This document shows, piece after piece, positions 518 to 47,948 of a stretch of 48,260 nucleotides of DNA (positions are counted from its first letter, which is position 1; each line of letters opens with the position of its first letter). The stretch comes from Desulfobacterales bacterium (GTDB taxonomy: Bacteria; Desulfobacterota; Desulfobacteria; Desulfobacterales; JAABRJ01). The notes beneath the pieces were generated by a model, which ran no database searches, was not told the DNA's origin, and saw nothing but the letters and a program-made list of their open reading frames with translations. The position numbers were made by a program, and so were the translations under genes. Location: the NCBI GenBank assembly GCA_046481705.1, contig JAWOJK010000134.1:1-48260 (forward strand), in the 5' to 3' direction.

Positions 518-519
518 GC

Positions 520-32300: not shown

Positions 32301-32999
32301 ATGATATTCGGCGGTCTGCAGAAAAACTCGTTCATCGACTACCCCGGCAGGATCAGCTGCGTGGTATTTCTATCGGGATGTAACTTTCACTGCCCCTACT
32401 GCCACAACCCCGACCTGGCGCGGGGCAAAGCGGCAGGCCGCGGCGATTTAAGCCTTTCCGGGCTCCTCGACTTTTTGGCGGCGCGCAGAGGGCTGCTGGA
32501 CGCCGTGGTCGTTTCCGGCGGCGAGCCGACCCTGCAACCCGATCTTGCAGGGCTCTGCCGCTGCATCCGGCAAGCCGGCTACCCGGTCAAACTGGACACC
32601 AACGGCAGCAACCCCGATGCCATCCGCCGCCTGCTGGCAGACAACCTCGTGGACTACATCGCCATGGACATCAAAACCGCTCCGGAAGGCTACGTGCCGG
32701 GCCTCGCGACCGACCTCGACCCCGCGCACCTCCGGGCCAGCATCGATCTCATCATGCACTCCGGCCGGCCATACGAGTTCCGCACGACCTGCGTGCAGCC
32801 GTTCGTGGATCCCGCCGTCATCACCGCCATCACCAGCTGCATCGCCGGCGCCGAGCGCTACGTTCTTCAGACATTCCGGCCGGACACGGTCATGGACCCG
32901 GGCTTTTTCAAAGGCCCCCACCGCGGCGCGTCGGCCGCCGAACTGGAAAACTTGCGCCGGCTTGCCGCCCCGCATGTCCGGCAGTGCCTGGTGCGCTGA
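32301..32999 (+). CDS. nrdG: Anaerobic RNR activating enzyme (radical SAM)
   Basis: GCNFHCPYCHN, SGGEP, KLDTNG and YEFRTT. Adjacent to nrdD. Confidence 0.93.
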   Translation: MIFGGLQKNSFIDYPGRISCVVFLSGCNFHCPYCHNPDLARGKAAGRGDLSLSGLLDFLAARRGLLDAVVVSGGEPTLQPDLAGLCRCIRQAGYPVKLDTNGSNPDAIRRLLADNLVDYIAMDIKTAPEGYVPGLATDLDPAHLRASIDLIMHSGRPYEFRTTCVQPFVDPAVITAITSCIAGAERYVLQTFRPDTVMDPGFFKGPHRGASAAELENLRRLAAPHVRQCLVR

Positions 33000-33028: not shown

Positions 33029-34597
33029 ATGCCATCCCTGCCCCCTTCCCCCAAGGACTGGCGGGTCCTCCTGGTCGACGACGAGGAGGGCATCCGCAAG
33101 GTCATGCGCATCACCCTGGAGGATGCCGGCTACCGGGTTGAAACCGCAGCCGACGGCGCTGGCGGCCTGACCCTGTGCGAGAGTTTTGCGCCCCAGATCC
33201 TGATCACCGACATCCGCATGCCCGGCATGGACGGGCTGGAGCTGCTGGCCACCGTCAAGCAGCGTCAGCCGGAGATCGAGGTCATCGTGATGACCGCCTT
33301 CGGCCAAATGGACCTCGCCATCCGTGCCCTGCAGCTGGATGCCTCGGATTTTATCACCAAACCGCTTCATGACGAAGCCCTCTTTCTGGCGCTGCAGCGG
33401 GCACGCGACCGCTTCCGGGCCCGCCAGCAGGTCCAGGACTACACCACCCTGCTGGAGGCGGGCTGGGCCCGCACCGCCCGGGAGCTGATGGACACCTTCG
33501 CCTTTCAGCGGAACCTGATCGACGGCTCCCTGGACGGCATCCTGGGATGTGATCGGAATGACACCGTGGTGATCTTCAACCGCAGCATGGAGCGGATGCT
33601 CGGCTACACCCGGGCGCAGGCGGTCGGCCAAATGGCGCTGACAGGCCTGTTTCACCCCGGAGAAGACGGGCGTTTCAGACGGGCACTGGCATCCGAGAAG
33701 TGGGGCGGCCGCGACCGCCTGGCACTTTTTGAAACCACCCTGATGGCCCAAGACGGCCAGAGCATTCCGGTTCAGGCCTCAGCCGCGGTCTTGCCCCAAC
33801 CGGGCGCCATGGGCGGTCTGGTCTGCTTCTTCAAGGATCTGCGGGAAGTCCGCCGCCTGGAACAGGAGGTGGCCGACCAAGCCCGTATCCTGCACCAGGA
33901 CAAAATGATGTCCCTGGGGCGGCTGGCCGCCAGCGTGGTTCACGAAATCAACAACCCGCTGGCCGGCATTCTCACTTACACCCGGCTGATGCTGCGGATC
34001 CTGGAGCGCGGGCCCCTGGAGCCGTCCCGCCAGGCGGATTTCAGCCGATACCTTGCGCTGGTGGAAAGTGAAACCGACCGTTGCGCCCGGATTGTCGCCA
34101 GCCTGCTGGCGTTTTCACGAAAATCGCCGCCGGCCATGACCGACCTCGCGCTTCGCGACCTTCTCAACCGCTGCGCCTTGATGAGCCACCACAAGCTGGA
34201 ACTGCAGAAGATTCGCCTTGAACTCGTGATCGCCGAGGATCTGCCCCCGGTCCGGGGGGATGCCAACCAGCTGCAGCAGTGCATCATCAACCTGATTTTC
34301 AACGCCATCGACGCCATGCCCGAAGGCGGCAGCCTGCGGCTCGAGGCCGACCGCAGCCCTTGCGGCGGGAAGGTGACCATCACCGTCACGGACACCGGGG
34401 CGGGGATCCCGACCGCGGTTCTGCCCCACATCTTCGAGCCTTTTTTCACCACCAAGGCCGAAGGCTACGGCGTGGGACTGGGCCTCTCGACGGTTTTCGG
34501 CATCATGCAGCGGCATGGAGGCAAGATTACGGCCGAAAACATCGCGGGCAAAGGCGCAGCTTTCACCCTGCATCTGCCCCTGGCGCCCCCTGATTGA
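33029..34597 (+). CDS. Soluble hybrid histidine kinase REC-PAS-HisKA-HATPase
   Basis: REC (LVDDE, TDIRMP, ITKP), PAS (IFNRSMERMLGY), H-box VVHEINNPL, NAIDA, FFTTK and GVGLGL. No TM helix. Confidence 0.92.
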   Translation: MPSLPPSPKDWRVLLVDDEEGIRKVMRITLEDAGYRVETAADGAGGLTLCESFAPQILITDIRMPGMDGLELLATVKQRQPEIEVIVMTAFGQMDLAIRALQLDASDFITKPLHDEALFLALQRARDRFRARQQVQDYTTLLEAGWARTARELMDTFAFQRNLIDGSLDGILGCDRNDTVVIFNRSMERMLGYTRAQAVGQMALTGLFHPGEDGRFRRALASEKWGGRDRLALFETTLMAQDGQSIPVQASAAVLPQPGAMGGLVCFFKDLREVRRLEQEVADQARILHQDKMMSLGRLAASVVHEINNPLAGILTYTRLMLRILERGPLEPSRQADFSRYLALVESETDRCARIVASLLAFSRKSPPAMTDLALRDLLNRCALMSHHKLELQKIRLELVIAEDLPPVRGDANQLQQCIINLIFNAIDAMPEGGSLRLEADRSPCGGKVTITVTDTGAGIPTAVLPHIFEPFFTTKAEGYGVGLGLSTVFGIMQRHGGKITAENIAGKGAAFTLHLPLAPPD

Positions 34598-34623
34598 TCG
34601 CCTCGGAAACGCTGATGTTTCAG

Positions 34624-34647
34624 ATGTTGCATCCGTTTCTGCAACAT
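34624..34647. promoter_or_regulatory. Palindromic operator or enhancer upstream of the hdr operon
   Basis: Perfect 8-bp arms ATGTTGCA-N8-TGCAACAT; a related GATGCA..GCAACA site lies at 34714-34733. Confidence 0.55.
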
Positions 34648-34815
34648 TTAACCGCCTGTCCTAAAATCATTTTTTAGAAAACTCTTCCTTGACCCTCCTA
34701 CCCGTTGCCTCTCGATGCATCATTTTGGCAACAGATCCGCCCCTGGACCTTCCTGCCATCCGCCGTTTCCACCTTTAATATCAAAATACAATTGAATTTC
34801 AGTTGGTTGATTAGA

Positions 34816-34832
34816 GCGGCATGTTTAATGCT
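34816..34832 (+). promoter_or_regulatory. Putative sigma54 -24/-12 promoter of the REC-hdr operon
   Basis: GCGGCATGTTTAATGCT = GG-N10-GC, 50 nt before the GTG start, preceded by an AT-rich IHF-like tract. Confidence 0.6.
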
Positions 34833-34881
34833 TTGTTCTACGATAACCTTCCGTATCGACCGTTTACCCCAGGAGCCCATC

Positions 34882-35301
34882 GTGAGCCAGGCGACCGGCA
34901 GCAAAAAGATCCTGATCGTCGACGATGAAGCCGACATGGTCACCTTCATGGCCACGCTGCTGGCGGCCAACGGGTACACGCCCATCGTCGCCCGTGACCC
35001 GGTCGAAGGCATGGCCAAGGCCCGGCGGCTCAATCCCGACTGCATCATCCTCAACGCCATGATGACCGGGGACGGCGGCATCACCCTGTATGTCAACCTG
35101 AGATGCGACCAGCAGCTGCGGACCGTTCCGGTCATCATGTTGTCCGCCATCGGCAGAAAGATCTTTCTTTTCTACCCCGAGGCCCAGGCGTCGGCCGACG
35201 GTCGGGATCTGCGGGAGCCGGAGTGCTATCTGGAAACCCCTCCTGACGCCGAGGAACTGTTGCGCCAGGTGCAAAAACTGTCCGCCCCGGCGACCGGTTG
35301 A
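34882..35301 (+). CDS. Stand-alone atypical (pseudo) receiver domain protein
   Basis: SD AGGAG then GTG 34882. KILIVDDE is intact, but PDCIILNAMM has Asn for the phospho-Asp and YLETP has Thr for the conserved Lys. Confidence 0.8.
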   Translation: MSQATGSKKILIVDDEADMVTFMATLLAANGYTPIVARDPVEGMAKARRLNPDCIILNAMMTGDGGITLYVNLRCDQQLRTVPVIMLSAIGRKIFLFYPEAQASADGRDLREPECYLETPPDAEELLRQVQKLSAPATG

Positions 35302-35336
35302 AGGTCATCGGCGCCGGCACCAGCAGGGAGAGACCA

Positions 35337-38300
35337 ATGGGCATCAAAATCGGGTTTTACATCTGCCACTGCGGCATCAATATCTCCTACCGGGTCCGGG
35401 TGCAGGAGGTTGCCGATTTTGCCCGCAACCTGAAAAACGTGGTGGTGGCCCGCGACTACAAGTTCATGTGCTCAGACCCCGGCCAGGAAATGATCGAAAA
35501 GGATATACGCGAGTACGGCCTCAACCGGGTGGTGGTGGCCTCCTGTTCGCCGCGGTTCCACGAAAAAACCTTCCGGGCAGCCTGTCAGCGGGCCGGCCTG
35601 AACCCCTACATGTTCCAGATGGCGTCGGTCCGCGAGCAGGTTTCCTGGGTCACCCGGGATCCCGACGAGGCCACCCGCAAGGCCAAGACCCTGGCAGCGG
35701 CGGCCATCAATCGGGTCAATTTCCACGAGGCCCTGGAAACCCGCGAAGTGGCGGTGCACCCCGACCTGCTGGTCGTCGGCGGGGGGATTGCGGGCATGCA
35801 GGCGGCGCTGGACATCGGCAGTGCCGGCCGGAAGGTCTACCTGGTGGAGAAGGACACCACCATCGGGGGCCACATGCTGCAGTTCGACAAAACCTTTCCG
35901 ACCCTCGACTGTGCCGCCTGTATCGGAACCCCCAAGATGGTGGAGGTGGCCCAGAATCCCAACATCGAACTGCTGTCCTACAGTGAGGTGACGGCGGTTT
36001 CGGGCTACATCGGCAACTACACGGTCAGCATCCGACGCAAACCGCGCTACGTCAAGGAGGGGGTCTGCACCGGCTGCGGGGAATGCACCAAGGTCTGCCC
36101 CGTGACGGCCCCCAGCGCCTGGGATCAGGGGCTGAGCCAGCGCAAGGCCATCTACCGGGCCTTTCCCCAGGCGGTGCCGATCGCCTTCTGCATCGACAAG
36201 AAGGACCGCGCGCCCTGCACGACCACCTGCCCGGCCGGCATCAACGTGCAGGGCTACGTCCAGCTGATCGGCCAGGGCAAATACCGCGAGGCCGTCGCGC
36301 TGATCATGGAGCGCCTGCCCCTGCCGGGGGTTCTTGGGCGGGTCTGCCCCCATCCCTGCGAGGCGGCCTGCCGGCGGGCCGAGGTCGACGCCCCCGTGGC
36401 GATCCGCGAACTCAAACGCTTTGCGGCCGACCAGGTCGACCCCGCGCAGCGCCTTAGGCCCGAAATCACCGAACGTCCGGAAAAAATCGCCGTGGTCGGC
36501 GGCGGCCCGGCCGGGTTGACGGCCGCCTACTTTGCGCGCCTCAAGGGGTACCAGGTGACCCTTTTCGAGGCCCTCGACACGCTGGGCGGCATGCTGCGGG
36601 TGGGGATCCCGGACTACCGCCTGCCGCCCGATGTTCTCGACCGCGAGATCGACTACATTCTCAGCCTGGGGGTTAAAACCCGCACCGGCGTCAGGTTGGG
36701 AAGGGATTTCACCCTGGCCGGCCTGCAGCAGGAGGGCTTTGCCGCGATTTTTATCGGCATCGGCTGCCACGCCTCCCTCAAGCTGGGCATCCCGGGCGAG
36801 GAGGGCACCCGCGGGGTAATCGACGCGGTGGCCTTCCTGCGCGGGATCAACCTGGGCGCGGGCATCGCCATTGGCAAACGGGTGGTCGTCGTCGGGGGCG
36901 GCAACGTCGCCATCGACGCCGCCCGCGTGGCGCGGCGGCTCGGCGCCGAAAAGGTGTCCGTGGTCTACCGCCGCTCCGAGGCGGAGATGCCGGCCTACGC
37001 CGAGGAGGTGGCCGGTGCGCTGGCCGAGGGCGTCTGCTTCGAATATCTCACCGCCCCCGTCCGTATCGTCGGCGCCGAGGGCGCCGTTAGCGGCTTCGAA
37101 TGCCTCCGCACCGAACTGGGGCCGCCGGACGCCAGCGGCCGGCGCCGCCCGGTGCCGATCGCCAACTCGGAATTCGAAATTGCCTGCGACACCGTTATCC
37201 CCGCCATCGGCCAACTCACCGAGAGCGCGTGGTCGGCGGCCGAAGCGGGCCCCGCGTGCTCGGCGCGCAACACCATCAAGGTCAGCCCGGTCTCCATGTG
37301 CACCACCCTGCCCCACGTATTTGCCGCGGGAGACGCCGTCACCGGACCGGCCACCGTCATTGAAGCGGTTGCCGGTGCACGCCGGGCGGTGGCGGCCATG
37401 GACCGCTTTATCCGGGGGGAGGCGCTTGACACCGCAGTCACGCCCGCGGTCAAAACGGCGGCCACAACCGCCGGCTGGAATGAAATCCCGGATGACATCC
37501 AAAGCGCTGCACGCCTGCAGCCCACGCATCTGCCGGCTTTGGAGAGCGCCGCTTCCTTTGCCGAGGTAACGCGCGGGGTCAGCGCCGAAGCGGCCCGCCA
37601 GGAGGCCGCACGCTGCCTCAACTGCGGGGTCTGCTCGGAGTGCATGGCATGCGTCAAGGTTTGCGAGGCCCAGGCGATCGACCACCGCATGCAGCCTGAA
37701 ACACTGGAAGTCCAGGTCGGCAGCATCATTCTGGCCACCGGCTACGACACCCTCGACCCGACCCCGATGCATCCCTTTGGCTACGGTCGTTTGCCCAATG
37801 TTTACACCAGTCTCGAATTCGAGCGCCTCAGCAATGCCACCGGCCCCACCGGCGGCAAAATCCTGATCCGCGACGAAAACGGAAGCTTTACCCGGGTGCC
37901 CCGCAGCGCGGCCATCCTCCACTGCATCGGCAGCCGGGATGTCAATTACCACGAATACTGCTCGCGGGTCTGCTGCATGTACGCACTGAAATACACCCAC
38001 CTGCTCAAGGAGAAGGTCGGCCACGACACGCGCGTCTACGATTTTTACATCGACCAGCGCTGCTACGGCAAAGGCTACGAGGAATTCTATCGCCGCTGCC
38101 AAGAAGAAGGCACGATCTTCGTGCGCGGCAGGGTGGCGGAAATAACCGACCAGGCCCAAACACCGACGGAAAAGGGCAAACTGGTGGCAATCGCCGAAGA
38201 CACCCTCCTGGGGCGTCGCATGCGGGTGCCGGTGGACATGGTCATCCTGTGCACGGCCATGGAGGCCCGCGCCGATGCCGCCGAGGTGGGGCGGATTTTC

Positions 38301-38747
38301 GGGGTCAACCAGGGTGCCGACGGCTTCTTCCTGGAGGAGCACCCCAAACTGGCGCCGCTGAACACCGCCACCGACGGCGTTTTCCTGGCCGGCACCTGCC
38401 AGGCCCCACGGGACATCCCCGACACCGTTGCCCAGGCATCCGGGGCGGCGGCCAAGGCCCTGGCGCTCTCCATCCGGGGCCTGGTTGAAATCCCCTCGGC
38501 CATCTCCTGGATCGACCCGGACGTCTGCTCCGGCTGCCAGGTCTGCATCGGGCTGTGCCCTTACGGCGCGATCGAGTTCGACCCGCGCCGCCAGGTCTCG
38601 GTGGTTAACGAGGCCACCTGCAAGGGCTGCGGCAGTTGCGCCGGCTTCTGCCCCAGCAGCGCCGCCCAGATCCGGCACTTCAAGGAGAAACAGATTTTTT
38701 CAGAAATCGACGGGATCATGGACGCCCTCCATGAGGTCGGCGTGTAG
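35337..38747 (+). CDS. hdrA: Large heterodisulfide reductase A (HdrL type) with an inserted GltD/NfnB-like FAD/NAD(P)H module
   Basis: YICHCG, MCS, SCSP, GGGIAG, FPTLDCAAC, SLEFER, CSRVCCMYALK and C-terminal 2x[4Fe-4S]. Insert ~36210-37625 has APC...CPAG, GRVCPHPCE, GGGPAG, GGGNVA and YRR. Confidence 0.93.
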   Translation: MGIKIGFYICHCGINISYRVRVQEVADFARNLKNVVVARDYKFMCSDPGQEMIEKDIREYGLNRVVVASCSPRFHEKTFRAACQRAGLNPYMFQMASVREQVSWVTRDPDEATRKAKTLAAAAINRVNFHEALETREVAVHPDLLVVGGGIAGMQAALDIGSAGRKVYLVEKDTTIGGHMLQFDKTFPTLDCAACIGTPKMVEVAQNPNIELLSYSEVTAVSGYIGNYTVSIRRKPRYVKEGVCTGCGECTKVCPVTAPSAWDQGLSQRKAIYRAFPQAVPIAFCIDKKDRAPCTTTCPAGINVQGYVQLIGQGKYREAVALIMERLPLPGVLGRVCPHPCEAACRRAEVDAPVAIRELKRFAADQVDPAQRLRPEITERPEKIAVVGGGPAGLTAAYFARLKGYQVTLFEALDTLGGMLRVGIPDYRLPPDVLDREIDYILSLGVKTRTGVRLGRDFTLAGLQQEGFAAIFIGIGCHASLKLGIPGEEGTRGVIDAVAFLRGINLGAGIAIGKRVVVVGGGNVAIDAARVARRLGAEKVSVVYRRSEAEMPAYAEEVAGALAEGVCFEYLTAPVRIVGAEGAVSGFECLRTELGPPDASGRRRPVPIANSEFEIACDTVIPAIGQLTESAWSAAEAGPACSARNTIKVSPVSMCTTLPHVFAAGDAVTGPATVIEAVAGARRAVAAMDRFIRGEALDTAVTPAVKTAATTAGWNEIPDDIQSAARLQPTHLPALESAASFAEVTRGVSAEAARQEAARCLNCGVCSECMACVKVCEAQAIDHRMQPETLEVQVGSIILATGYDTLDPTPMHPFGYGRLPNVYTSLEFERLSNATGPTGGKILIRDENGSFTRVPRSAAILHCIGSRDVNYHEYCSRVCCMYALKYTHLLKEKVGHDTRVYDFYIDQRCYGKGYEEFYRRCQEEGTIFVRGRVAEITDQAQTPTEKGKLVAIAEDTLLGRRMRVPVDMVILCTAMEARADAAEVGRIFGVNQGADGFFLEEHPKLAPLNTATDGVFLAGTCQAPRDIPDTVAQASGAAAKALALSIRGLVEIPSAISWIDPDVCSGCQVCIGLCPYGAIEFDPRRQVSVVNEATCKGCGSCAGFCPSSAAQIRHFKEKQIFSEIDGIMDALHEVGV

Positions 38748-38803
38748 CATTTGATCCGCGCTGCCGCACCGATACCCGCCACCCTTTGATGCTGGAGGCA
38801 ACG

Positions 38804-39226
38804 ATGGAAACCTTCGAACCCACCCTGATCGCCTTTGTCTGCAACTGGTGCACCTACACGGCCGCCGACCTGGCCGGCACCTCGCGCCTGAGCTATCCGC
38901 CCAACGTGCGCCTGGTGCGGGTGATGTGCACGGGCATGGTGGACCCCAAATACGTGATCAAGGCGCTGCTGGAAGGGGCCGACGGGGTGTTGATCAGCGG
39001 CTGTCATCCGGGCGACTGCCATTACATCAACGGCAACTTCAAGGCCCGCCGGCGCATCAAGCTCCTCAAGGAGATCCTGCCCCAGTTCGGGTTCGCCCCC
39101 GAACGGCTGAAACTGACCTGGATCGGCGCCAGCGACGGCATCCAGTTTGCCGACACGATCACCCAGCTGGTGGCACGACTCAGGGCCCTGGGCCCCAGCG
39201 AGACCCGCAGCCAGATGGTGATCTGA
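38804..39226 (+). CDS. mvhD: MvhD-type [2Fe-2S] protein
   Basis: FVCNWCTY.AAD, RVMCTG and GCHPGDCHY..GN. SD GGAGG. Confidence 0.95.
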   Translation: METFEPTLIAFVCNWCTYTAADLAGTSRLSYPPNVRLVRVMCTGMVDPKYVIKALLEGADGVLISGCHPGDCHYINGNFKARRRIKLLKEILPQFGFAPERLKLTWIGASDGIQFADTITQLVARLRALGPSETRSQMVI

Positions 39227-39280
39227 GCGCAACCCTTGCAAACAGGGGCCGATCCGCCTGGGCCCCTGCGGAGGACCCCC

Positions 39281-40420
39281 ATGGCAAGCACGCTAAAAAT
39301 CGAGGTGAGCGCCGGTGACATCCTGTCGGCGCTGCAGGCGTTTTTAAAATCGGTGCTCGCGCAGGAGACGATCAGCGCCCTGCTGGTCCCGCAACACCTG
39401 CCCATGAAAGACCGGGTGATGCCGGCCCTGGTGTCGGATCCCGCAAAACTTGCCGCAGCCGACCCGCTGGCACCGGCCTTTCCCCTGAACGCCGCGCGCC
39501 TGGCGGCACGCCTGACCCGCCGCACCGCCGGCGGCCGGATCGCGGCGGTCCTGCGACCGTGCGAAATCCGCGCCCTGGTCGAACTGGTCAAGCTCAAACA
39601 GGCCAGCACCGAAGAACTTCTTCTGATCGGGATCGACTGTCTCGGCGCCTTCACCAACCGCGACTACGCACGCTACACGGCGACAACCGGGGCAGGAGCC
39701 ACGACCGCATTTTACCGCCGCATCCTCTTCGAAGGCCAAAGGCCCGCGGATGACTTCGATCTGGCGCCGGCCTGCCGGGTCTGCGAACACCCCGTCCCCG
39801 AAGGGGCCGATATCCTGATCGGGCTATACGGCGCCACCCCCGGGGGGCCGCTGTGGGCCGAAGCCCAGACCCCGAAAGGGAAAGCGTTCCTCGAACAGCT
39901 CGGGGCAGGGGCCGCGGAGGCCCCCGCCGGGCGTTCAGGGGCCGTTGCCGAACTCATCGCGGCGCGCAGCGCGCGCCGGGACGAAATGTTCGCCGCCACC
40001 CGTGAGCAGACCGACAGCCTGGAAAAACTCAGCGCCTACCTGGCCGCCTGCGTCAACTGCTACAACTGCCGGGTCGCCTGCCCGGTATGCTACTGCCGGG
40101 AGTGCGTTTTCGTCACCGACGTGTTCGACCACGAACCCTTTCAGTACTTGAAGTGGGCCCATCGCAAGGGGGCCGTCAAGATGCCCACCGACACCATTTT
40201 CTTTCACCTGACGCGGCTGGCCCACATCAGCACCGCCTGCGTGGGCTGCGGCCAGTGCTCCAACGCCTGCCCCAACGACATCGCGGTCATGGAACTCTTT
40301 CGCAGCGTGTCCCACCGAACCCAGGCGGCGTTTAAATACGAAGCCGGCCGCAGCCTGGACGAACCGCCCCCGCTGGCGGTGTTCAAAGAGGATGAATTTG
40401 GGGAGGTAACCGGCCTGTAA
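39281..40420 (+). CDS. FdhB/FrhB-family subunit with a C-terminal 4Fe-4S dicluster
   Basis: LRPCEIRALVEL.K..Q, GIDC.G, AC..C, CVNCYNCRVACPVCYC..C, FHLTR..H and CVGCGQCSNACP. Confidence 0.85.
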   Translation: MASTLKIEVSAGDILSALQAFLKSVLAQETISALLVPQHLPMKDRVMPALVSDPAKLAAADPLAPAFPLNAARLAARLTRRTAGGRIAAVLRPCEIRALVELVKLKQASTEELLLIGIDCLGAFTNRDYARYTATTGAGATTAFYRRILFEGQRPADDFDLAPACRVCEHPVPEGADILIGLYGATPGGPLWAEAQTPKGKAFLEQLGAGAAEAPAGRSGAVAELIAARSARRDEMFAATREQTDSLEKLSAYLAACVNCYNCRVACPVCYCRECVFVTDVFDHEPFQYLKWAHRKGAVKMPTDTIFFHLTRLAHISTACVGCGQCSNACPNDIAVMELFRSVSHRTQAAFKYEAGRSLDEPPPLAVFKEDEFGEVTGL

Positions 40421-40484
40421 CCAACCGGCCCTGCCCGCCGCAGCGGCGGCAATGGCCGCGAACACCCATCAACAGAGGCCAGCC

Positions 40485-43400
40485 ATGAAACGAAAAATCG
40501 GCAGCGCAATGGTTGTCGGCGCCGGGATCGCCGGCATCCGGGCGGCCCTGGACCTGGCCGAAAGCGGCTACGGGGTCACCCTGATCGACCGCGCAGCGCA
40601 TATCGGCGGGATTCTGAGTCAACTGGACTACCAGTTCCCCAGCAATGGCTGCGGCATGTGCAAGCTGCTGCCGCTGGTGGCGCGCGATGCCGGCTCCCAG
40701 TATTGCCTGCGCAAGGGGCTTTTCCACGAAAACATCGACATCCTGCTTTCCACCGAAATCGCCGCCATATCAGGCGAGGCCGGCCATTTCGAGGTCACCC
40801 TGCGCCAGTCGCCCAACCCGGTGGACCCGGAGCGCTGCACCGGCTGCGGGGCCTGCACGGCGGTCTGCCCGGTGTCGGTGCCGGATGAATTCAACGCCGG
40901 GCTGACCTTGCGCAAGGCCATCTACCTGCCCGTGCCGCATGCCATTCCCAACCCTTTCAGGATCGACCCGGCCGCCTGCACCCGCTGCGGCGCATGTGTC
41001 GCGGCCTGCCCCAACGGCGCCATCCAGCTGGCGGATAGCGGTCGGGAAGGCTTCCGCGTGCTGGTGGTCGATGACGAGCTGATCGTGCGGGATTCCATCC
41101 ACGCCTGGCTCACGGACGAAGGCTACACGGTGGAGATGGCCGCCGGCGGCCGGGAGGCCCTGAAGCGACTGACCGAGCAGCGGTTTCAGCTGATGCTGCT
41201 GGATATCAAAATGCCCGGCATGGATGGGGTCGAAGTCCTCCAAAAAGCCCGCGAAATGCAACCGGACCTGTGCGTCGTGATGATGACCGCCTACGCCACG
41301 GTCGAAACCGCCATCGAAGCGATGAAGGCCGGCGCGCGCGAATACCTGCTCAAACCCTTTGAGCCCGACACGCTGAGCGCTCAGGTGGCCCGCATCTACC
41401 ATGAGACCGAGCTGGCCGAAGCCCGGCGGGTTGAAACCGGCGCGTTGATTCTCTGCGGGGGGACCGATTATTACAACCCGGCCGAGGGCAAAAACCCGTT
41501 TGCCTACCGGCAAAGCCCGCATGTGCTGACCAGCTTGGAATTCGAACGGATCTTGAGCGGCACCGGCCCCAGCGGCGGACGGCTGGTGCGCCCGGCGGAC
41601 GGCAAAGCGGTCGGCAAGGTGGCCTGGATCCAGTGCGTGGGGTCCCGCGATCTTCAGAGCGGAGCGGACTTCTGTTCCACCGTCTGCTGCATGTATGCCA
41701 TCAAGGAGGCCCTCCTGGCCCGGGAAAAAACCGCTACGGACCTTGAAACGACGATCTTCTACATGGACCTGCGCACCCCCGGAAAGTCTTTTCAGCGCTA
41801 CCGCGACCGGGCGGAGCAGGAAGGCGGCGTAAAGTTCGAACGGGGTCGGATCCACTCCGTGGTCCCCGACCCGGCCACCGGCGACCCCGTGCTGGCGTAT
41901 GTGCCCCACGACGGCGGCCGCCGCGAGGAATGTTTTGACCTGGTGGTGCTCGCCGTTGGCCAGCGGCCCGCGGCCGGTGCCGCCCAACTGGCCGAAATCG
42001 CCGGGATCGAACTGAACCCCTGGGGGTTTGCCCGCAGCGCCCCGTTTTCTCTGACCCGCAGCAGCCGCGAGGGCATTTTCCTGGGCGGCGCCTTTGCCGG
42101 TCTGCAGGACATCTCCGATTCAGTGATCCGGGCCAGTTCGGCCGCTTTGGGCGCTTCACGGGTGCTGCACGCCGGCGGCGGCAGCCTGGGCGCCGCCCCA
42201 TCGCCGGCCGCGACGCTGCGGGACGTCAGCCGCGAGACGCCCCGGGTCGGGGTGATTTTCTGCACGTGCGGCGAGAGCGTCCCGCTGACCACGGCCCTGG
42301 CCGCTGACCTGCAGCAGGACCCGGCGGTGGCGTGGGTCAGCGCCCTTGAAAAAACCTGCACCGCCGAGGGCTGGGAGGCCATGACGGACCTGGTGAAGGC
42401 CCGGGACGTAAACCGCCTGCTGATCGCCGCTTGCCGCCCCTATGTTTACGCCCGCAAACTGCGCGAACTGAGTGCGGCGGTCGGGCTCGAACCGGCCCTG
42501 ATGACGGTGGTGGACATCCGCAGCCTGTCGCCGACGACCGCCCCGCCTCCCGCGGAGGTGGCGCGGGTCGTGGCGATGGGGGTCGCAGCGCTGAAAAAGG
42601 TCGCACCGGGGCCGGTGCCCAGCGTTGCAGTGGTCCAGGAGGCCCTGGTGGTGGGCGGCGGGATTGCCGGCATGACCGCAGCCCTGAGCATTGCCGACCA
42701 CGGGTACCCGGTAAGGCTGGTGGAGCAGGCCGAATCCCTGGGCGGCAACCTCAACTGGCTGACCTCCACCTTGGACAACCAAAACCCCCGGGCCCTGCTG
42801 ACCGAAACCGTGACCCGGGTGGGAAAGCACCCGCGCATCACGGTCCACACCAGCAGCCGGGTGGCCGGGGCCTTCGGCGAGGTCGGCCATTTTTTCACCA
42901 CCATCGAGGGACCCGACGGACGAACCACCAGCCTGGAGCACGGAACGGTGATCCTCGCCACCGGCGGCAGCGAGGCGGCCACCACGGCCTACGGCTACGG
43001 GACCAGCGAAGCCGTATTGACCCTCAAGGCGCTGGAAACCCGCCTGGCCAGCACGGCCATCGATCCGGCCGAGCTGACGGCCGTCGTCATGATCCAGTGC
43101 GTCGAGTGCCGCGAGGAGCCCCGCAACTACTGCAGCCAGGTCTGCTGCCCCTCGGCCCTCAAACACGCCCTCGCGCTCAAAAAGGGCAACCCGGATATCG
43201 CGGTTTATGTGTTGTACCGCGACATGATGAGCTGCGGCTTCAACGAAACCTACTACACCCGGGCGCGTCAGGCCGGAATTCTGTTTTTCCCGTATAGCCT
43301 GCAGCGCAAACCCAAGGTGAGGATCGACGCCGAAACCGGACCGCTGGTGACCGTCTTCGAACCGGTGCTCGGGCGCGAAGTCGCCATTGCGGCCGACCTC

Positions 43401-43892
43401 GTGGTGTTGGCGACCGGCATCGTGCCCCATCTGCCCGAAGCGCTGGTCGACGCATTTGGCATCGTCCGCGACCGGGACGGATTTTTCCAGGAAGCCGAAT
43501 CCAAGTGGCGGCCGGTGGATGCCGTCAAGGAGGGGGTTTTTGCCTGCGGCCTGGTGCGCGCGCCCCACGGCATTCCGGAAGTCATTGCCGAGGCGGAAGC
43601 CGCGGCCCAGCGTGCGCTCAGAATTCTGGGGCGCAAACGCCTGCCGGCCGGGAAGGTGGTGGCGGAGGTGCGCCTCAGCCTCTGCAGCCGCTGTGAGCGC
43701 TGCCTCGACGCCTGCCCTTACGGCGCCCGGTGCCTCAACCCGGAGCTGGACAGAATCTTCATCAACCCGGCCATGTGCCAGGGCTGCGGGGCCTGCGCCG
43801 CGGTTTGCCCCAACAGTGCGGCGATTGTGGCGGGATTTACGGACGGTCAGATGCTGGCGGTGATCGACGCCGCCCTGGAAGGAGTATCGTGA
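40485..43892 (+). CDS. hdrA: Double-module HdrA-like flavoprotein with an internal response-regulator receiver domain
   Basis: Module 1: GAGIAG, FPSNGCGMC, 2x[4Fe-4S] insert, REC at 41052-41405, SLEFER, CSTVCCMYAIK. Module 2: FCTCG, GGGIAG, CSQVCC..ALK, C-terminal 2x[4Fe-4S]. Alternative start at 40452. Confidence 0.92.
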   Translation: MKRKIGSAMVVGAGIAGIRAALDLAESGYGVTLIDRAAHIGGILSQLDYQFPSNGCGMCKLLPLVARDAGSQYCLRKGLFHENIDILLSTEIAAISGEAGHFEVTLRQSPNPVDPERCTGCGACTAVCPVSVPDEFNAGLTLRKAIYLPVPHAIPNPFRIDPAACTRCGACVAACPNGAIQLADSGREGFRVLVVDDELIVRDSIHAWLTDEGYTVEMAAGGREALKRLTEQRFQLMLLDIKMPGMDGVEVLQKAREMQPDLCVVMMTAYATVETAIEAMKAGAREYLLKPFEPDTLSAQVARIYHETELAEARRVETGALILCGGTDYYNPAEGKNPFAYRQSPHVLTSLEFERILSGTGPSGGRLVRPADGKAVGKVAWIQCVGSRDLQSGADFCSTVCCMYAIKEALLAREKTATDLETTIFYMDLRTPGKSFQRYRDRAEQEGGVKFERGRIHSVVPDPATGDPVLAYVPHDGGRREECFDLVVLAVGQRPAAGAAQLAEIAGIELNPWGFARSAPFSLTRSSREGIFLGGAFAGLQDISDSVIRASSAALGASRVLHAGGGSLGAAPSPAATLRDVSRETPRVGVIFCTCGESVPLTTALAADLQQDPAVAWVSALEKTCTAEGWEAMTDLVKARDVNRLLIAACRPYVYARKLRELSAAVGLEPALMTVVDIRSLSPTTAPPPAEVARVVAMGVAALKKVAPGPVPSVAVVQEALVVGGGIAGMTAALSIADHGYPVRLVEQAESLGGNLNWLTSTLDNQNPRALLTETVTRVGKHPRITVHTSSRVAGAFGEVGHFFTTIEGPDGRTTSLEHGTVILATGGSEAATTAYGYGTSEAVLTLKALETRLASTAIDPAELTAVVMIQCVECREEPRNYCSQVCCPSALKHALALKKGNPDIAVYVLYRDMMSCGFNETYYTRARQAGILFFPYSLQRKPKVRIDAETGPLVTVFEPVLGREVAIAADLVVLATGIVPHLPEALVDAFGIVRDRDGFFQEAESKWRPVDAVKEGVFACGLVRAPHGIPEVIAEAEAAAQRALRILGRKRLPAGKVVAEVRLSLCSRCERCLDACPYGARCLNPELDRIFINPAMCQGCGACAAVCPNSAAIVAGFTDGQMLAVIDAALEGVS

Positions 43893-43952
43893 CGACCGGC
43901 TGCGCATCCCTGCTTCCAGCCCTTTTGAATGCCGACGGCAGAAGGAGTTCAC

Positions 43953-44528
43953 ATGAAAGCCAGCGCCACCGCAACCCGTCCGGGTGAAACCGCCAGCGTT
44001 CGCGAACCGCTGACGGACATCCGCCAAATGGTCAGCGCCTGCATCCAGTGCGGCACCTGCACCGGCTCGTGCCCCAACGCGCATGCCATGGACCACACCC
44101 CCCGCCAGCTCTGGCGAATGGTGCTGATGGAGGAGCAGGACCTGATTTTTGAGAGCAAAACCTTCGCCCTCTGCTCGGCCTGTTATACCTGCAGCCTGCG
44201 GTGTCCCCGGGGTCTGCCGCTGACCGAAGCCATGGCGGCCCTCAAACAGGCCGCCGCCCGCGCGAACGTCCCGGCCTTCCGGCCAAGCGCCCGATTCTAT
44301 CGCAGCTTCCTCGAAAGCGTGCGCCGCCATGGACGGGTGCGTGAAAGCGAATTCATGACGCTTTACTTCCTGGCCATGAAAAACCCGCTGCTGCCGCTGA
44401 AGTTTGCACCGCTGGGCTTCAAGCTGATGGGCAAGGGCAAGCTGCAGGTGGCCCTGCCGACCGGCTCCGGCCGGGGGGCCCTGGATGCCATCTTTGACAA
44501 AGTCGCTGAACTGGAGGGCCGGTCATGA
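43953..44528 (+). CDS. hdrC: Heterodisulfide reductase subunit C
   Basis: CIQCGTCTGSCP and CSACYTCSLRCPRG, F..SV..HGR..E. SD AAGGAG. Confidence 0.9.
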   Translation: MKASATATRPGETASVREPLTDIRQMVSACIQCGTCTGSCPNAHAMDHTPRQLWRMVLMEEQDLIFESKTFALCSACYTCSLRCPRGLPLTEAMAALKQAAARANVPAFRPSARFYRSFLESVRRHGRVRESEFMTLYFLAMKNPLLPLKFAPLGFKLMGKGKLQVALPTGSGRGALDAIFDKVAELEGRS

Positions 44529-45394
44529 AGTATCTCTACTACCCGGGGTGTTCCCTGGAGGCCAGCGCCAGCGAGTACGACCGCTCCAGCCGCGCCTTCC
44601 TGACGGCCATGGGGGCTGAGATTACGGAACTGGCGGATTGGAACTGCTGCGGGGCCAGCGCCGCCGAGGCCCAAAGCCGGCTGCTAGCCCTGGCCCTGCC
44701 CGCGCGCAACCTCGCAATAGCCGAAAGGATGGGGGTTGCCCGCGACCTTCTGGTGCCCTGCAGCGCCTGCTATCTGAACCTCAGGAAGGTGGCGGAAAAA
44801 ATCCGGCGCGAGCCGGACCTGCTGGCGGAACTCAATACGGTCCTGAGCGCCGATGGGCTGCAGCTGAGCGGCGGGGTCCGGGTTCGGCACCTGCTGGACG
44901 TGGTGGCCACCGACCTGGGGGCCCAAGCGCTGCGCGCCAAGGTTAGCCGCCCGCTGAAGGGGCTGACGATCGCGCCCTACTACGGCTGCCAGTGCCTGCG
45001 GCCCTACAAGGTATTTGACGACCCCGAAGCGCCGCAGACCATGTCCCCCCTGATCGAGGCCGCGGGGGCCGCCGTGCACCCCTGGCAGATGGGCGCGCGC
45101 TGCTGCAGCGCCTCGCTGATGACCACCAAACCGGAGGTCGGGGTGGTGCTGGTGGCCGACATCCTCACGGCCGCGCGCGGGGCGGACGCCATCGCAACCG
45201 TCTGTCCCATGTGCCAGATGAACCTCGAGGCTTTCCAGGCCAAAGCTTCCCGTTTTGCCGGTGAAAACCTCGCCATTTCGGTGCTCTACCTGCCTCAGCT
45301 GCTGGGGCTGGCCATGGGCCTTTCGGAGTCGGAGCTCGGGCTGGGGTTCAACCTGGCGCTGACGGCAGGGTTACGGAATAAGCTGGCCGCTTGA
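44525..45394 (+). CDS. hdrB: Heterodisulfide reductase subunit B (two CCG domains)
   Basis: YYPGC, WNCCG, CSAC, YYGC, RCCS and CPMC..NL. ATGA overlap with hdrC. Confidence 0.93.
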   Translation: MKYLYYPGCSLEASASEYDRSSRAFLTAMGAEITELADWNCCGASAAEAQSRLLALALPARNLAIAERMGVARDLLVPCSACYLNLRKVAEKIRREPDLLAELNTVLSADGLQLSGGVRVRHLLDVVATDLGAQALRAKVSRPLKGLTIAPYYGCQCLRPYKVFDDPEAPQTMSPLIEAAGAAVHPWQMGARCCSASLMTTKPEVGVVLVADILTAARGADAIATVCPMCQMNLEAFQAKASRFAGENLAISVLYLPQLLGLAMGLSESELGLGFNLALTAGLRNKLAA

Positions 45395-45430
45395 CGGCTG
45401 AGGGTTGCAGGCCTGCGCGCCGGGCGGCGG

Positions 45431-47002
45431 TCACGCCGCCTGATTTTCAGAGGTGTTTTTTTGGGGCTCTGGCGGCTCGCCGCCGACGGCGGGCAGGCGC
45501 ACGGTGAAACAGGAACCCTCCCCCGGTGCGGATGCCACCGTGATCTCGCCCCCGTGCTGGTGGACGATTTTAGCGGCCACAAAAAGACCCAGGCCGGTCC
45601 CCTTGTCGGCTTTGGAGGAGGCGAAGAGCGTGAAAATCCCGGCGCGGGTGTCGGCATCCATGCCGATACCGTTGTCCTCGACTTCGAACACAACCTGCTG
45701 AGGCTCCCGACGGACCCGGAACACCACGCGGTGCTCGGTTTTTTGACGGTCCTCGATGCAGGCGTCCACGGCATTTTCCAGGATATTGACCAGAGCGGCC
45801 TGGACCTGGCCGGCATCCAACTCGAAACGCCCCAAACCGGGCGCGAGCTCCTGCACGAAGCGGATGCCGTGGCGCTTCATTTTTGGGGTGATCAGGCCGG
45901 TGAGCTCCTCGGCAAATACCGCCAGATCCACCGGCGTAGGCACCACCGCCCGTTCCTTGGCCTGGTAGAGAATATCGAGCACCATCCCCCGGATGCGCCC
46001 CACCATGAGCTTGACCACCTCCCAGCCCTCCTGGACCTGCGCCTGATCTTCGTGCGCAAAACCGGCATCGATCAGGTACATGCCGCCGTCCAGCCCCGTC
46101 AACAGCCCCTTGATGGCATGCGAGACCGAACCGATCATCAATCCCAGTGAGGCGAGGTGATCCTGCAGCTGGCTCAGCTGGGTGATGTTGGTGGCCATCA
46201 CCAGCACGTGGGTGATATCCCCATGCGCATCGCGCACGGGGGTGGTCCACACCAGGGTGTTGAAGGACGCGCCGGTTTGGGTTTTGAAAACCATTTCCGT
46301 CTGCTGGGGGCAGCCGCTGTGGAAAGTTTTATCGGCGGGGCAGTCCTCACAGGGCGCCGCGACCTGTTTGCAGAGTTCATAACAGCAGGATTCGCCGGGC
46401 TCCCCGAAATCCTGCCTGAAGAGCCTGTTGGCGGCCGTGAGGTGATACTGACGATCCCGCACGGTGATGTAACACGGCATATCGTCGAAGAGTTTCTGGT
46501 AGCGGGAAGGATCCGGCGCTGGTTGCGCGCCTGAAGCTTTTGACGCAGAGGGCTTGGCGACCGCCTGGAGCCGCGCCGTCTTTTCATGCACCAAGGTTTC
46601 CAGGTTTTCGGTGTACTCTTTTAACTTGCGGCGAATGAGAATGTTCTCGCGGGCTTTCTGGAGGGATTTTTCAAGGGCGTCATCGCTGATCGGCTTGGTG
46701 ACGAAATCGGTGGCGTCGTATTGCAGGCTTTTGATGGCGAGTTCCATGTCACCGTGGCCGGTGATCATGATGACCTCGGTTTCGGGGTTCTGCTGCTTGA
46801 TGCGCCGCAGCAAGGTGATGCCATCCATGCCGGGCATCTTGATGTCGGTGAGCACGATGTCCGGTTGCTCACTTTCAAAAATGCGCAGGGCCTCCTCCCC
46901 GTTTTCGGCGGTCAAAACGGTGTAGCCGCTGTCTGCCAGCGAAATGCCGAGGACCTTGCGGATACCTTCCTCGTCATCTACCAGAAGCAGTTTGGATTTC
47001 AT
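45431..47002 (-). CDS. Soluble hybrid histidine kinase REC-PAS(Cys-rich)-HisKA-HATPase
   Basis: REC (LVDDE, TDIKMP, VTKP), PAS with CCYELC...PCEDCP, H-box SHAIKG, NAVDAC, DNGIG and GTGLGL. Confidence 0.9.
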   Translation of the reverse strand: MKSKLLLVDDEEGIRKVLGISLADSGYTVLTAENGEEALRIFESEQPDIVLTDIKMPGMDGITLLRRIKQQNPETEVIMITGHGDMELAIKSLQYDATDFVTKPISDDALEKSLQKARENILIRRKLKEYTENLETLVHEKTARLQAVAKPSASKASGAQPAPDPSRYQKLFDDMPCYITVRDRQYHLTAANRLFRQDFGEPGESCCYELCKQVAAPCEDCPADKTFHSGCPQQTEMVFKTQTGASFNTLVWTTPVRDAHGDITHVLVMATNITQLSQLQDHLASLGLMIGSVSHAIKGLLTGLDGGMYLIDAGFAHEDQAQVQEGWEVVKLMVGRIRGMVLDILYQAKERAVVPTPVDLAVFAEELTGLITPKMKRHGIRFVQELAPGLGRFELDAGQVQAALVNILENAVDACIEDRQKTEHRVVFRVRREPQQVVFEVEDNGIGMDADTRAGIFTLFASSKADKGTGLGLFVAAKIVHQHGGEITVASAPGEGSCFTVRLPAVGGEPPEPQKNTSENQAA

Positions 47003-47021
47003 GGCTCGTGACGGCTGCGGG

Positions 47022-47381
47022 TCAGTCCGGCAACCCGATGGCGCGCTGCACGGTCAGCAGCAGCTTGTCGGGGTCAAACGGTTTGCTGATGTAGGCCACC
47101 GCCTTCTTGATGGCATGCCGCCCGGCCATACCGCTGATCACGATGACGGGAATATCCTGCAGCTCGGGGTCCTTGGTCATCCGGCGGTAAAAGTGCGGAC
47201 CCCACTCCTCGGGCATTTCCAGGTCCAGGGTGATCAGGTCGGGTTTTTCGCGTTTGACCACATCCAACGCCGCCACGCCGGTGGTGGCGCTGCAGGTGGT
47301 GTAACCGTTGTCCTCGAGCAGCGCGGTAAGGTATTTCACGATAATGGGGTCGTCATCGATGATCAGGATTTTCTTTGCCAT
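47022..47381 (-). CDS. Single-domain response regulator of the tmc-associated type (resembles Desulfovibrio DVU0259, from recall)
   Basis: MAKKILIIDDD, PDLITLDLEMPEEWGP.FYR, VISG and SKPFDP. Directly downstream of tmcA. Confidence 0.88.
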   Translation of the reverse strand: MAKKILIIDDDPIIVKYLTALLEDNGYTTCSATTGVAALDVVKREKPDLITLDLEMPEEWGPHFYRRMTKDPELQDIPVIVISGMAGRHAIKKAVAYISKPFDPDKLLLTVQRAIGLPD

Positions 47382-47487
47382 GCGGTGACCTCTTTTTGGG
47401 CGAATCGGTTGGGGCCTGCAGGAAAATCGGGAGGACACACCCAAGGCCGGACCGCCCGGATGTGCCCGTTAGTTCCATGCAGGCCAC

Positions 47488-47880
47488 TTAATTCCGAGGG
47501 TGGCACTCGGCACACATCACCGGACCGGCCAGCTGTTCCCGATGACAGCCCCCACAGCGCAAATGGTAGGCCACAATCAGCGCGATCGGTTCGGCGCCGC
47601 TGGCGGCCAGGTGGCATTCCGAGCACTCCTGGTCCTCGGAGGTTTCGTCGGCCAGCAGCTGGCCATCCTCCACGACATGATGGCAGACGTTGCACTCATC
47701 GATGCCGGCCTTTTCATTGTGGTCGTCGTGCAGGAAGGGCACCGGCGGCCGCATCCGGTTACCGAAGGCGCTGTCCCTCACGGTGGTCACGTCCTCCTGG
47801 GAGTATACGGCCGATCCGGCTGCCAGCGCCAGGGCCGCCAACACAAGAAGCGCAAAGGCCATCAAAGCGCGGTTTTTCAT
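47488..47880 (-). CDS. tmcA: Acidic tetraheme (type II) cytochrome c3
   Basis: Signal peptide, F.HDDHNEKA and four heme motifs (CNVCHH, CSECH, CGGCH, CAECH). Acidic composition; follows a TmcB-like gene. Confidence 0.85.
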   Translation of the reverse strand: MKNRALMAFALLVLAALALAAGSAVYSQEDVTTVRDSAFGNRMRPPVPFLHDDHNEKAGIDECNVCHHVVEDGQLLADETSEDQECSECHLAASGAEPIALIVAYHLRCGGCHREQLAGPVMCAECHPRN

Positions 47881-47948
47881 CAGGTCACCCCCTTTTCTTG
47901 CTTCGGCTGCAGCAAACCACAGCGGCCGGGAAGGGCCGCCCGGGGGCC

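Follow-up and report, generated by a model that had tools for sequence, protein, structure and literature searches.

A receiver domain within a tandem HdrA

The window analyzed here is the entire 48,260-base contig C363 (JAWOJK010000134.1) of assembly GCA_046481705.1, a Desulfobacterales genome of 397 contigs and 3.9 Mb. A gene map based on the open reading frame (ORF) listing, Pfam families, and translations places in it an operon for a heterodisulfide reductase (Hdr)-type enzyme amid two-component signaling genes (Table 1). At the center lies HdrA-REC, a tandem HdrA protein with an inserted response regulator receiver domain (REC). The original prediction, made from the letters of this stretch, had listed the kinase HK1, a small receiver (pREC), HdrL, MvhD, an FdhB-like subunit, HdrA-REC, HdrC, and HdrB in this order, facing a second kinase (HK2), a further receiver (REC4), tmcA, and tmcB; every gene named is present at its place. 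The present study suggests that two-component phosphorylation may act on the Hdr enzyme itself.

Residues 19 to 192 of HdrA-REC align with residues 146 to 309 of the methanogen HdrA chain 5odc_A, that is, with the start of the flavin adenine dinucleotide (FAD) domain and the ferredoxin domain inserted in it, and residues 325 to 523 align with 317 to 514. Further along, residues 595 to 766 correspond to 2 to 181, the N-terminal cysteine domain of a second module, and residues 971 to 1131 to 476 to 639, the C-terminal ferredoxin domain. Judged by this alignment, HdrA-REC is a fused, asymmetric pair of HdrA modules: the first holds the inserted ferredoxin domain and neither terminal domain, and the second holds those two domains and no inserted ferredoxin. 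Pfam matches to Pyr_redox_2, FAD_oxidored, and NAD_binding_8 at residues 19 to 52 and 730 to 849 identify the dinucleotide-binding FAD domain. Two cysteine sets, Cys408, Cys412, and Cys413 and Cys894, Cys898, and Cys899, are invariant in 15 of 15 sequences. The NCBIfam scores lie below the equivalogue cut-offs (657.2 versus 1100 bits for HdrA2, the best match, and 484.2 versus 1400 bits for HdrA), which makes the protein an HdrA-like relative and not an equivalogue; NCBIfam holds no model specific for HdrA-REC. The top Foldseek matches of its structural model were HdrA chains, with template modeling scores (TM-scores) by target of 0.54 to 0.67.

The receiver insertion (about residues 193 to 324) falls between positions 309 and 317 of 5odc_A, where the chain re-enters the FAD domain from the ferredoxin insert. 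It scores 108.9 bits against Pfam Response_reg (cut-off 30.2) over residues 203 to 312. In the AlphaFold model of HdrA-REC, built with 15 sequences (mean predicted local distance difference test, pLDDT, 69.7; predicted TM-score 0.68), residues 202 to 320 form the complete five-strand, five-helix fold with block pLDDT values of 66 to 87, and helix 5 (305 to 320) enters a strand of the FAD domain (323 to 329) within about 2 residues. Asp207, Asp208, Asp251, Thr279, and Lys301, the residues of the phosphorylation chemistry, are kept in all 15 aligned sequences and in 120 of 120 homologues. Helix 1 of the HdrA receiver is almost invariant.

Could the receiver work without phosphorylation, as a docking or dimerization module, for example with pREC, the product of the first gene of the operon, as its partner? 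That gene shares its transcript with hdrL, judging from a stop codon at 35301 that lies about 35 nucleotides (nt) ahead of the likely hdrL start, and the acceptor site of pREC has decayed in part of the family. From the sequence, its likely start is the GTG at 34882, with GGAG ahead of it. In the window copy, Asn replaces the acceptor Asp and Thr replaces Lys, so that two key receiver residues are missing. Of 44 orthologue-like small receivers, 31 have the acceptor Asp and 10 have Asn in its place; Lys is kept in 35. The label pseudo-receiver given by the original prediction therefore fits the copy in the window but not the family: since most relatives keep Asp and Lys, pREC is a degenerate copy here. 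The retention of all five phosphorylation residues in every one of the 120 HdrA homologues would not be expected of a purely structural domain. Together with the Asp retained in most small receivers, it leaves a docking role very improbable.

At least 120 cluster representatives, each about 1140 residues long, came out of a search of a protein collection; all have the receiver family, all are from Desulfobacterales assemblies, and they are annotated as "response regulator" or "heterodisulfide reductase subunit A". Among 301 sampled genomes of the class to which the window belongs, all of the same order, 294 had some HdrA-like match, and a near-full-length match spanning the receiver occurred in about 120, roughly 40% by hand count. 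The genome of the window also encodes, on contig C139, a tandem HdrA paralogue that lacks the receiver and has only a short linker at the insertion point. This paralogue (about 1700-4737, minus strand, about 1012 residues) contains an in-frame TGA at 4528-4530 that aligns with Cys70 of HdrA-REC; by its sequence it is probably a selenocysteine protein. An MvhD paralogue is encoded downstream of it.

The partner HdrL is built on a similar plan. HdrA2 positions 1 to 295 match its residues 17 to 309, the NAD(P)-binding model PRK12771 covers 301 to 807, and HdrA positions 300 to 653 match 779 to 1143 (all NCBIfam); the GltD-like module thus interrupts HdrA at about the same position, near 295 to 300, as does the receiver in HdrA-REC. 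HdrA parts joined to an NAD(P)H-binding GltD-like module, with mvhD following, are how HdrL is defined in the accessible part of the Desulfobacterium autotrophicum report (Strittmatter 2009, PMC2702500), and the window protein has this form. The gene content points to a cytoplasmic, NAD(P)H-linked enzyme of Hdr type, which is probably what the cluster encodes. On contig C129, upstream of a membrane kinase described below, lies a 651-residue oxidoreductase (9685-11640, minus strand; locus L081) with NuoF-type 4Fe-4S and GltD-like parts, about 41-44% identical to the GltD-like part of HdrL.

The closest structural relative is HdrA of the methanogen HdrABC-MvhAGD and related complexes (PDB 5odc, 8rvy, 7bkd). 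The thioredoxin-reductase-like FAD fold and three further domains align, and MvhD, HdrC, and HdrB partners are encoded alongside in both cases. Unlike methanogen HdrA, the window chain fuses two modules and has a receiver spliced in, and no hydrogenase genes are present alongside the window hdr genes. In gene content, the cluster resembles the hdrL/hdrA4 locus VIII of D. autotrophicum HRM2, with tandem hdrL/hdrA, mvhD, an fdhB-like gene, and hdrC/hdrB. Among the neighbors of hdr loci, the figure legend of that report names "response regulator", "histidine kinase", and "CheY-like regulator"; its accessible text is silent on regulation, on conserved kinases, and on any receiver within HdrA (PMC2702500).

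Table 1. Genes and sequence elements of the Hdr region, in the window and on contig C129
Feature	Location	Strand	Evidence or remark
HK1, soluble REC-PAS-HisKA-HATPase kinase (probable)	33029..34597	+	Pfam Response_reg, PAS, HisKA, HATPase_c
Perfect 8-bp inverted repeat ATGTTGCA, 8 nt, TGCAACAT; candidate activator site	34624..34647		Upstream of the small receiver gene
Weak sigma-54-type -24/-12 element TGGCAACAGATCCGC	34727..34741	+	Poor -12 part
Small receiver (pREC), a degenerate copy; heads the hdr operon	34882..35301 (ORF listed 34705-35301)	+	Pfam Response_reg 47.4 bits
HdrL	35298..38747	+	Pfam: HdrA parts and GltD-like NAD(P)-binding module
MvhD-like iron-sulfur protein	38786..39226	+	Pfam FlpD 178.5 bits
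FrhB/FdhB-like iron-sulfur flavoprotein subunit	39236..40420	+	Pfam FrhB_FdhB_C E 8.6e-11, plus Fer4 families
HdrA-REC, tandem HdrA with inserted receiver, 1146 residues	40452..43892	+	Pfam, 5odc_A alignment, Foldseek
Receiver domain of HdrA-REC, residues 202-320	41055..41411	+	Directly after the inserted ferredoxin domain
HdrC-like subunit	43929..44528	+	Pfam Fer4_8, Fer4_17; NCBIfam HdrC families all below cut-off
HdrB-like subunit, two CCG domains	44525..45394	+	Pfam CCG, two stretches
Terminator-like hairpin, convergent gap after hdrB	45426..45440	+	Terminator scan
HK2, soluble (probable) kinase with REC and Cys-rich PAS	45431..47002	-	Pfam
REC4, single-domain receiver, DVU0259 family	47022..47444	-	NCBIfam NF045717
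TmcA, tetraheme cytochrome c3	47488..47880	-	NCBIfam NF045722; four CXXCH motifs; N-terminal hydrophobic segment
TmcB, C-terminal 89 residues; gene continues on contig C129	47949..48218	-	Pfam CCG
PAS/sigma-54/HTH_8 activator, 579 residues	C129 (L081) 4134-5873	-	Sigma54_activat 228.8 bits, HTH_8 49.7 bits
Membrane kinase, 778 residues, HAMP, PAS, HisKA, ATPase	C129 (L081) 5870-8206	-	Two hydrophobic helices

Conserved kinases and the control of hdr transcription

Loci were fetched from species-representative genomes with the HdrA-REC alignment alone; we used the best 80 of at least 583 matches, many of which may be ordinary receiver proteins, and parsed 79. As the flanks end at 10 kb, upstream counts were restricted to the 43 loci with at least 9.9 kb and downstream counts to the 55 loci with at least 7 kb. 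Upstream of HdrA-REC, the FrhB-like gene occurs in 42 of 43 loci, HdrL in 40, MvhD in 39, the small receiver in 29, and an HK1-like REC-PAS kinase in 22, the last being a lower bound. Downstream, HdrB is found in 42 of 55 loci, HdrC in 40, a receiver-less kinase of about 770 residues in 40, and an HK2-like REC-kinase in 44 (same strand in 41, opposite strand in 3), together with NtrC-type regulators in 10, REC4-like receivers in 5, and TmcA and TmcB in 4. Where both flanks were available (37 loci), at least one of the HK1- and HK2-like kinases was present in 32 and both in 18. The kinases thus proved to be conserved beside HdrA-REC, a point on which the original prediction had made itself depend. 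By synteny, the core genes form a cluster conserved in Desulfobacterales and Syntrophobacterales.

The enzyme genes themselves vary in one respect. No locus has both HdrB and a 765-residue HdrC/D-like protein: HdrB occurs in 34 loci, the HdrC/D-like protein in 6, and 1 locus has neither. This mutual exclusion fits one functional complex with alternative disulfide-reductase subunits. In L004, L019, L026, L034, L040, L041, L043, L049, L054, L059, and L074, a HdrC/CCG-like protein of about 765 residues is encoded between the small receiver and HdrL, and these 11 variant loci have no hdrC/hdrB after HdrA-REC. Among the carriers is the cultured Desulfospira joergensenii DSM 10085 (locus L054), which makes experiments feasible.

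Several statements of the original prediction about the signaling proteins are borne out. No HTH (helix-turn-helix) family was found by Pfam in any of the five receiver proteins. By a crude test, in which no 19-residue Kyte-Doolittle window of HK1 or HK2 reached a mean of 1.6, the two kinases are probably soluble, as had been stated. Their receivers are closely related, with 57% identity (66/115), compared with 23-38% for the other receiver pairs in the window. A tree of 95 domains from the receiver classes, drawn at random with no more than 22 from each class, unites the HK1 and HK2 classes in one clade with a support of 97 and sets the HdrA receivers apart in a clade of their own with a support of 99. 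Receiver helix 1 is near-identical between HK1 and HK2.

The chemistry of both kinases is well kept. In HK1, the Asp-Asp pair, the acceptor Asp, Thr, Lys, and His are retained in 24 of 24 orthologues; in HK2, the acceptor Asp is retained in 46 of 47, the acidic Asp pair in 45, and Thr, Lys, and His in all 47. The PAS domain is missing from 36 of the 47 HK2 orthologues. A PAS-like domain with a motif of the form Cys-Tyr followed by Cys-x2-3-Cys recurs in HK2 (residues about 205-222, window 46340-46390), in the membrane kinase, and in the sigma-54 activator, and Cys207, Cys218, and Cys221 of HK2 are kept in the 11 of 11 orthologues that retain the domain. This Cys-bearing PAS may be a metal- or redox-sensing variant common to the three proteins.

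If the kinases did not act on HdrA, they might act on transcription via regulators encoded elsewhere, for instance of NtrC type, and the HdrA receiver would then be a phosphate sink or a redox-reporting feedback element. NtrC-like receiver regulators do stand beside the cluster, with partner kinases, in 10 of 55 loci. Furthermore, 25 of 40 loci show a -24/-12 sigma-54 pattern, mostly TGGCAC-N5-xTGC, in the 330 nt that precede the small receiver gene, against a chance expectation of about 0.8 loci by our own arithmetic. The regulator conserved in the cluster is of a different kind. Contig C129, which continues the window as described below, encodes a PAS/sigma-54/HTH_8 activator whose orthologues occur in 29 of 80 loci, usually either in the interval that separates HK1 from the small receiver gene or following the membrane kinase. 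It has no Response_reg match in Pfam; lacking a receiver, it is not a two-component regulator and not a phosphorelay output. The original prediction had seen no DNA-binding regulator, which holds within the window, but the activator lies just beyond the contig end. It had likewise allowed that the kinases phosphorylate only transcription factors encoded elsewhere, for example upstream in the missing part of the tmc operon; a regulator is indeed encoded there, but without a receiver it cannot be a phosphorylation target.

At 6882-10125 on the minus strand, the window itself encodes a kinase of 634 residues and a 492-residue response regulator of NtrC type. The regulator is 46% identical to the NtrC-like neighbors of hdr in Syntrophobacter-like loci. 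We considered this pair as the regulator absent from the cluster and rejected it, as the similarity is generic for the family and the kinase has no close counterpart. With NtrC-type neighbors in a minority of loci, the conserved activator devoid of a receiver, and a fixed insertion site with very short linkers that a mere sink would not need, we regard an exclusively transcriptional role of the kinases as unlikely.

In the window, the sigma-54 element upstream of the small receiver gene is accompanied by an inverted repeat that is a candidate site for the activator (Table 1). TTGCA-N6-12-TGCAA palindromes occur upstream of hdrL in 12 other loci, almost all of them, on reading by hand, in the gap upstream of the small receiver; 7 other loci have them within 330 nt upstream of that gene. 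A scan with the strict consensus TGGCAC-N5-TTGCW (up to 2 mismatches) was set aside, since it gave no enrichment (22 sites in the window versus 27.8 expected, and 6 versus 9.1 on C129); no plus-strand match of that scan lay upstream of the hdr genes. The less strict -24/-12 pattern, anchored on the small receiver gene, proved the informative one.

Tmc, Hmc, and the membrane kinase

The window ends within tmcB. Its positions 47644-48222 match C129 107-684 with 98.96% identity over 579 bases, and the outermost 38 window bases and 106 C129 bases differ. The last 38 window bases place an in-frame stop before the TmcB fragment. The discrepancy suggests that the assembly broke where strains vary or where a near-duplicate exists. 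On its minus strand, C129 carries, in order, the 778-residue membrane kinase, the 579-residue sigma-54 activator, TmcD, TmcC, TmcB, and the start of TmcA. In a 90%-identical relative (L001), the genes hdrB, HK2, REC4, tmcA, tmcB, tmcC, tmcD, activator, and kinase are contiguous. Together with the sequence overlap, this contiguity indicates that C129 continues the window. The Tmc subunits all score above the curated cut-offs (TmcA 152.4 versus 114, TmcB 831.9 versus 735, TmcC 327.4 versus 240, and TmcD 607.6 versus 440 bits). As the membrane kinase, activator, tmcDCBA, REC4, and HK2 form one string convergent with hdr, Tmc and Hdr share signaling genes here.

Two-component genes beside tmc had been invoked by the original prediction as established, and the accessible part of a paper on Desulfococcus multivorans agrees, describing regulators and kinases beside tmc/hmc as "resembling" those of D. 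vulgaris (PMC5109826). The gene string described here is like the two-component loci beside tmc and hmc in sulfate reducers in having tmcDCBA with a DVU0259-family receiver and a REC-kinase downstream. It differs in converging on an Hdr operon that itself bears a receiver, and in most relatives the kinase orthologues accompany hdr, not tmc.

REC4 belongs to the DVU0259 family (NF045717, 183.8 bits versus a cut-off of 160); pREC, with 59.8 bits, lies outside it. We take DVU0259 to be the D. vulgaris gene that lies beside tmc. The key sites of REC4 itself are intact. Among the REC4-like receivers, the acceptor Asp, the second acidic residue, and Lys are kept in 6 of 6, the first acidic residue is Asp in 4 and Glu in 2, and the hydroxyl position is Ser in 5 and Thr in 1.

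A second example in the same genome is the gene string at 392-7447 on the plus strand of contig C86 (L082). It has hmcC, hmcE, and hmcF, then encodes a protein of 305 residues that matched no family, and continues with a DVU0259-family receiver (190.8 bits versus 160), an HK2-like kinase, and an Rrf2-family regulator. Taken by gene neighborhood, the REC4/HK2 pair is a companion of transmembrane redox complexes, and the HK2 type of kinase is also a usual companion of hdr.

These observations raise the possibility that the tmc-side genes, namely the membrane kinase, sigma-54 activator, REC4, and HK2, serve Tmc only, as their counterparts would serve Hmc, and that their proximity to hdr is incidental. 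The family membership of REC4, the arrangement on C86, the two-component genes described beside tmc (PMC5109826), and the rarity of tmc next to hdr all speak for it. The distribution of the kinases, however, does not. HK2 and membrane-kinase orthologues flank hdr in 44 and 40 of 55 loci, mostly free of tmc. HK2 orthologues at hdr loci are 50-70% identical, closer than the paralogue on C86 (41%), and the activator orthologue usually sits within the signaling genes of the hdr cluster, between HK1 and the small receiver gene. Furthermore, the four other tmc-bearing loci (L001, L016, L050, L070) show three arrangements, and in each tmc is convergent with hdr with signaling genes between. On a FastTree phylogeny of 79 HdrA-REC proteins, tmc adjacency needs 4 changes, at least 3 of them forced by well-supported branches, and 51 of 500 shuffles score as low. 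This scatter suggests recurrent adjacency, by repeated gain or repeated loss. We therefore consider it quite unlikely that the tmc-side genes serve Tmc alone.

The same figures speak against Tmc as the membrane input to Hdr, which the original prediction had proposed: tmc adjoins hdr in no more than 4 of 55 loci, which are dispersed over the HdrA tree, and this part of the proposal is not supported. Comparison of the loci points to another protein as the conserved membrane input, a kinase that has two helices and a periplasmic sensor with c-heme motifs. It has orthologues in 49 of 80 loci, and the usual order elsewhere is this membrane kinase and an HK2-type REC-kinase after the hdr genes. The arrangement recalls LvrA/LvrB, where a sensor kinase gene is directly followed by one for a protein of about 380 residues with receiver, dimerization and histidine phosphotransfer (DHp), and ATPase parts and no output domain; the matches of HK2 and the other kinases to the NCBIfam model hybrid_RR_LvrB all lie below the cut-off (117.6 versus 500), so the resemblance is one of architecture only.

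In the periplasmic loop of the membrane kinase, a CXXCH motif and a CX3-4CH motif are each present in 44 of 44 sequences, along with conserved His and Met residues. The modeled periplasmic domain (pLDDT 80) matches extracytoplasmic PAS-like sensors, including those of WalK, KinD, and DctB. The domain may share its extracytoplasmic PAS-like fold, set between two membrane helices and bearing a CXXCH motif, with the c-heme domains of Geobacter GSU0935 and GSU0582 (3b42, 3b47). Foldseek gave E values of 1.7e-5 and 9.9e-4 to these structures at 18-19% identity, with TM-scores of only 0.33-0.50 (0.37-0.50 for 3b42), and WalK-type domains matched as well or better. A profile of the domain found nothing significant among solved structures, the best relevant hit being 3b42 with an E value of 0.14. 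Unlike the two Geobacter proteins, which are chemoreceptors, the protein described here is a histidine kinase and has the second conserved motif.

How the HdrA receiver may be used

The most plausible account of these findings, which we hold with evenly balanced confidence, is a network of several kinases, probably with the redox state of the periplasm as its input, that would phosphorylate the receiver of HdrA and modulate the enzyme. HK1, the HK2-type REC-kinase, and the membrane kinase with its PAS-like domain and two c-heme motifs would together sense redox state, the membrane kinase reading periplasmic redox or a ligand. The most likely targets of the membrane kinase would be the receivers of HK1 and HK2, which closely resemble each other and which gene adjacency, by the usual reasoning, suggests as its cognates. 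From the kinase modules of HK1 and HK2, phosphate would pass on to the HdrA receiver and to small receivers of the DVU0259-like type. Phosphorylation might shift the inserted ferredoxin domain or its partner binding, and could thereby alter electron flow via the ferredoxin-side branch, or it could alter assembly. Transcription of hdr would be controlled separately, by the receiver-less PAS/sigma-54 activator at the sigma-54 promoter upstream of the small receiver gene. A more specific version is tentative, and we think it doubtful as it stands: two-component phosphorylation of a receiver wired to the ferredoxin-side arm of HdrA might gate the low-potential branch of a flavin-based bifurcating or confurcating Hdr according to the redox state of the periplasmic cytochrome pool, reported by a putative diheme kinase through the REC-kinases.

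The phosphorelay drawn by the original prediction is thus upheld in part. Kinases conserved beside HdrA-REC and the receiver residues kept in every homologue support it, but tmc is rarely adjacent and the sigma-54 activator is conserved. Several points weigh against phosphorylation of HdrA by this network. The HdrA-REC model is of moderate confidence by its mean pLDDT. As the patterns used to fetch the loci contained the acceptor Asp and Thr, residue counts on the 80 loci are partly circular, which is why the 120 homologues were checked separately. The genomes are related, and the locus counts overstate independence. Neither kinase type is found in 5 of the 37 loci with both flanks, and the NtrC-type regulators of 10 loci may be the real outputs there. 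The window has a degenerate small receiver and a weak sigma-54 element that the strict consensus scan missed. The membrane kinase does not adjoin HK2; it is encoded six genes upstream of it, on another contig. Conservation of the DHp and of receiver helix 1 failed to separate the kinases by partner (means of 0.76-0.86 for kinases and 0.62-0.85 for receivers). Finally, the account presumes that the inserted ferredoxin domain is the ferredoxin-side exit of HdrA, as in the structural literature.

Response regulators such as CheB and PleD have a receiver fused to an enzyme and no DNA-binding domain. Unlike in these proteins, the receiver of HdrA is internal, in a linker of a multi-cofactor redox subunit, and not N-terminal, and the output would be an iron-sulfur flavoenzyme. 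If phosphorylation of HdrA-REC holds true, an iron-sulfur flavoenzyme would be added to the few enzymes that serve as outputs of two-component systems, and a function would emerge for the two-component genes that have long been seen next to tmc and hmc. It would also mean a fast post-translational link from transmembrane electron input (Tmc/Hmc) to cytoplasmic energy coupling in a large share of Desulfobacterales. Hdr-type enzymes are central to energy conservation in sulfate reducers, syntrophs, and methanogens; to our knowledge, almost nothing is known about the regulation of their activity. A receiver at a fixed site in HdrA with its phosphorylation residues in place would provide a concrete, testable handle on it.

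Part of the picture is already known: an hdrL/hdrA locus with mvhD, an fdhB-like gene, hdrCB, and nearby regulators, in the accessible text of the 2009 report (PMC2702500), and two-component genes beside tmc. A receiver in HdrA, a link of these kinases to Hdr, and DVU0259 by name were not found in the open literature, subscription journals, figures, and supplements being outside the search.

Two minor features frame the operon. At its downstream end, a terminator-like hairpin lies in the convergent gap after hdrB; such sites are not enriched across the region (20 found versus 13.8 ± 3.9 in shuffles). At the upstream end, the genes for the anaerobic ribonucleotide reductase NrdD (660 bits) and its radical-SAM activase lie directly upstream of HK1 (30131-32999, plus strand); the stop of the activase gene and the start of HK1 are only about 30 bases apart.

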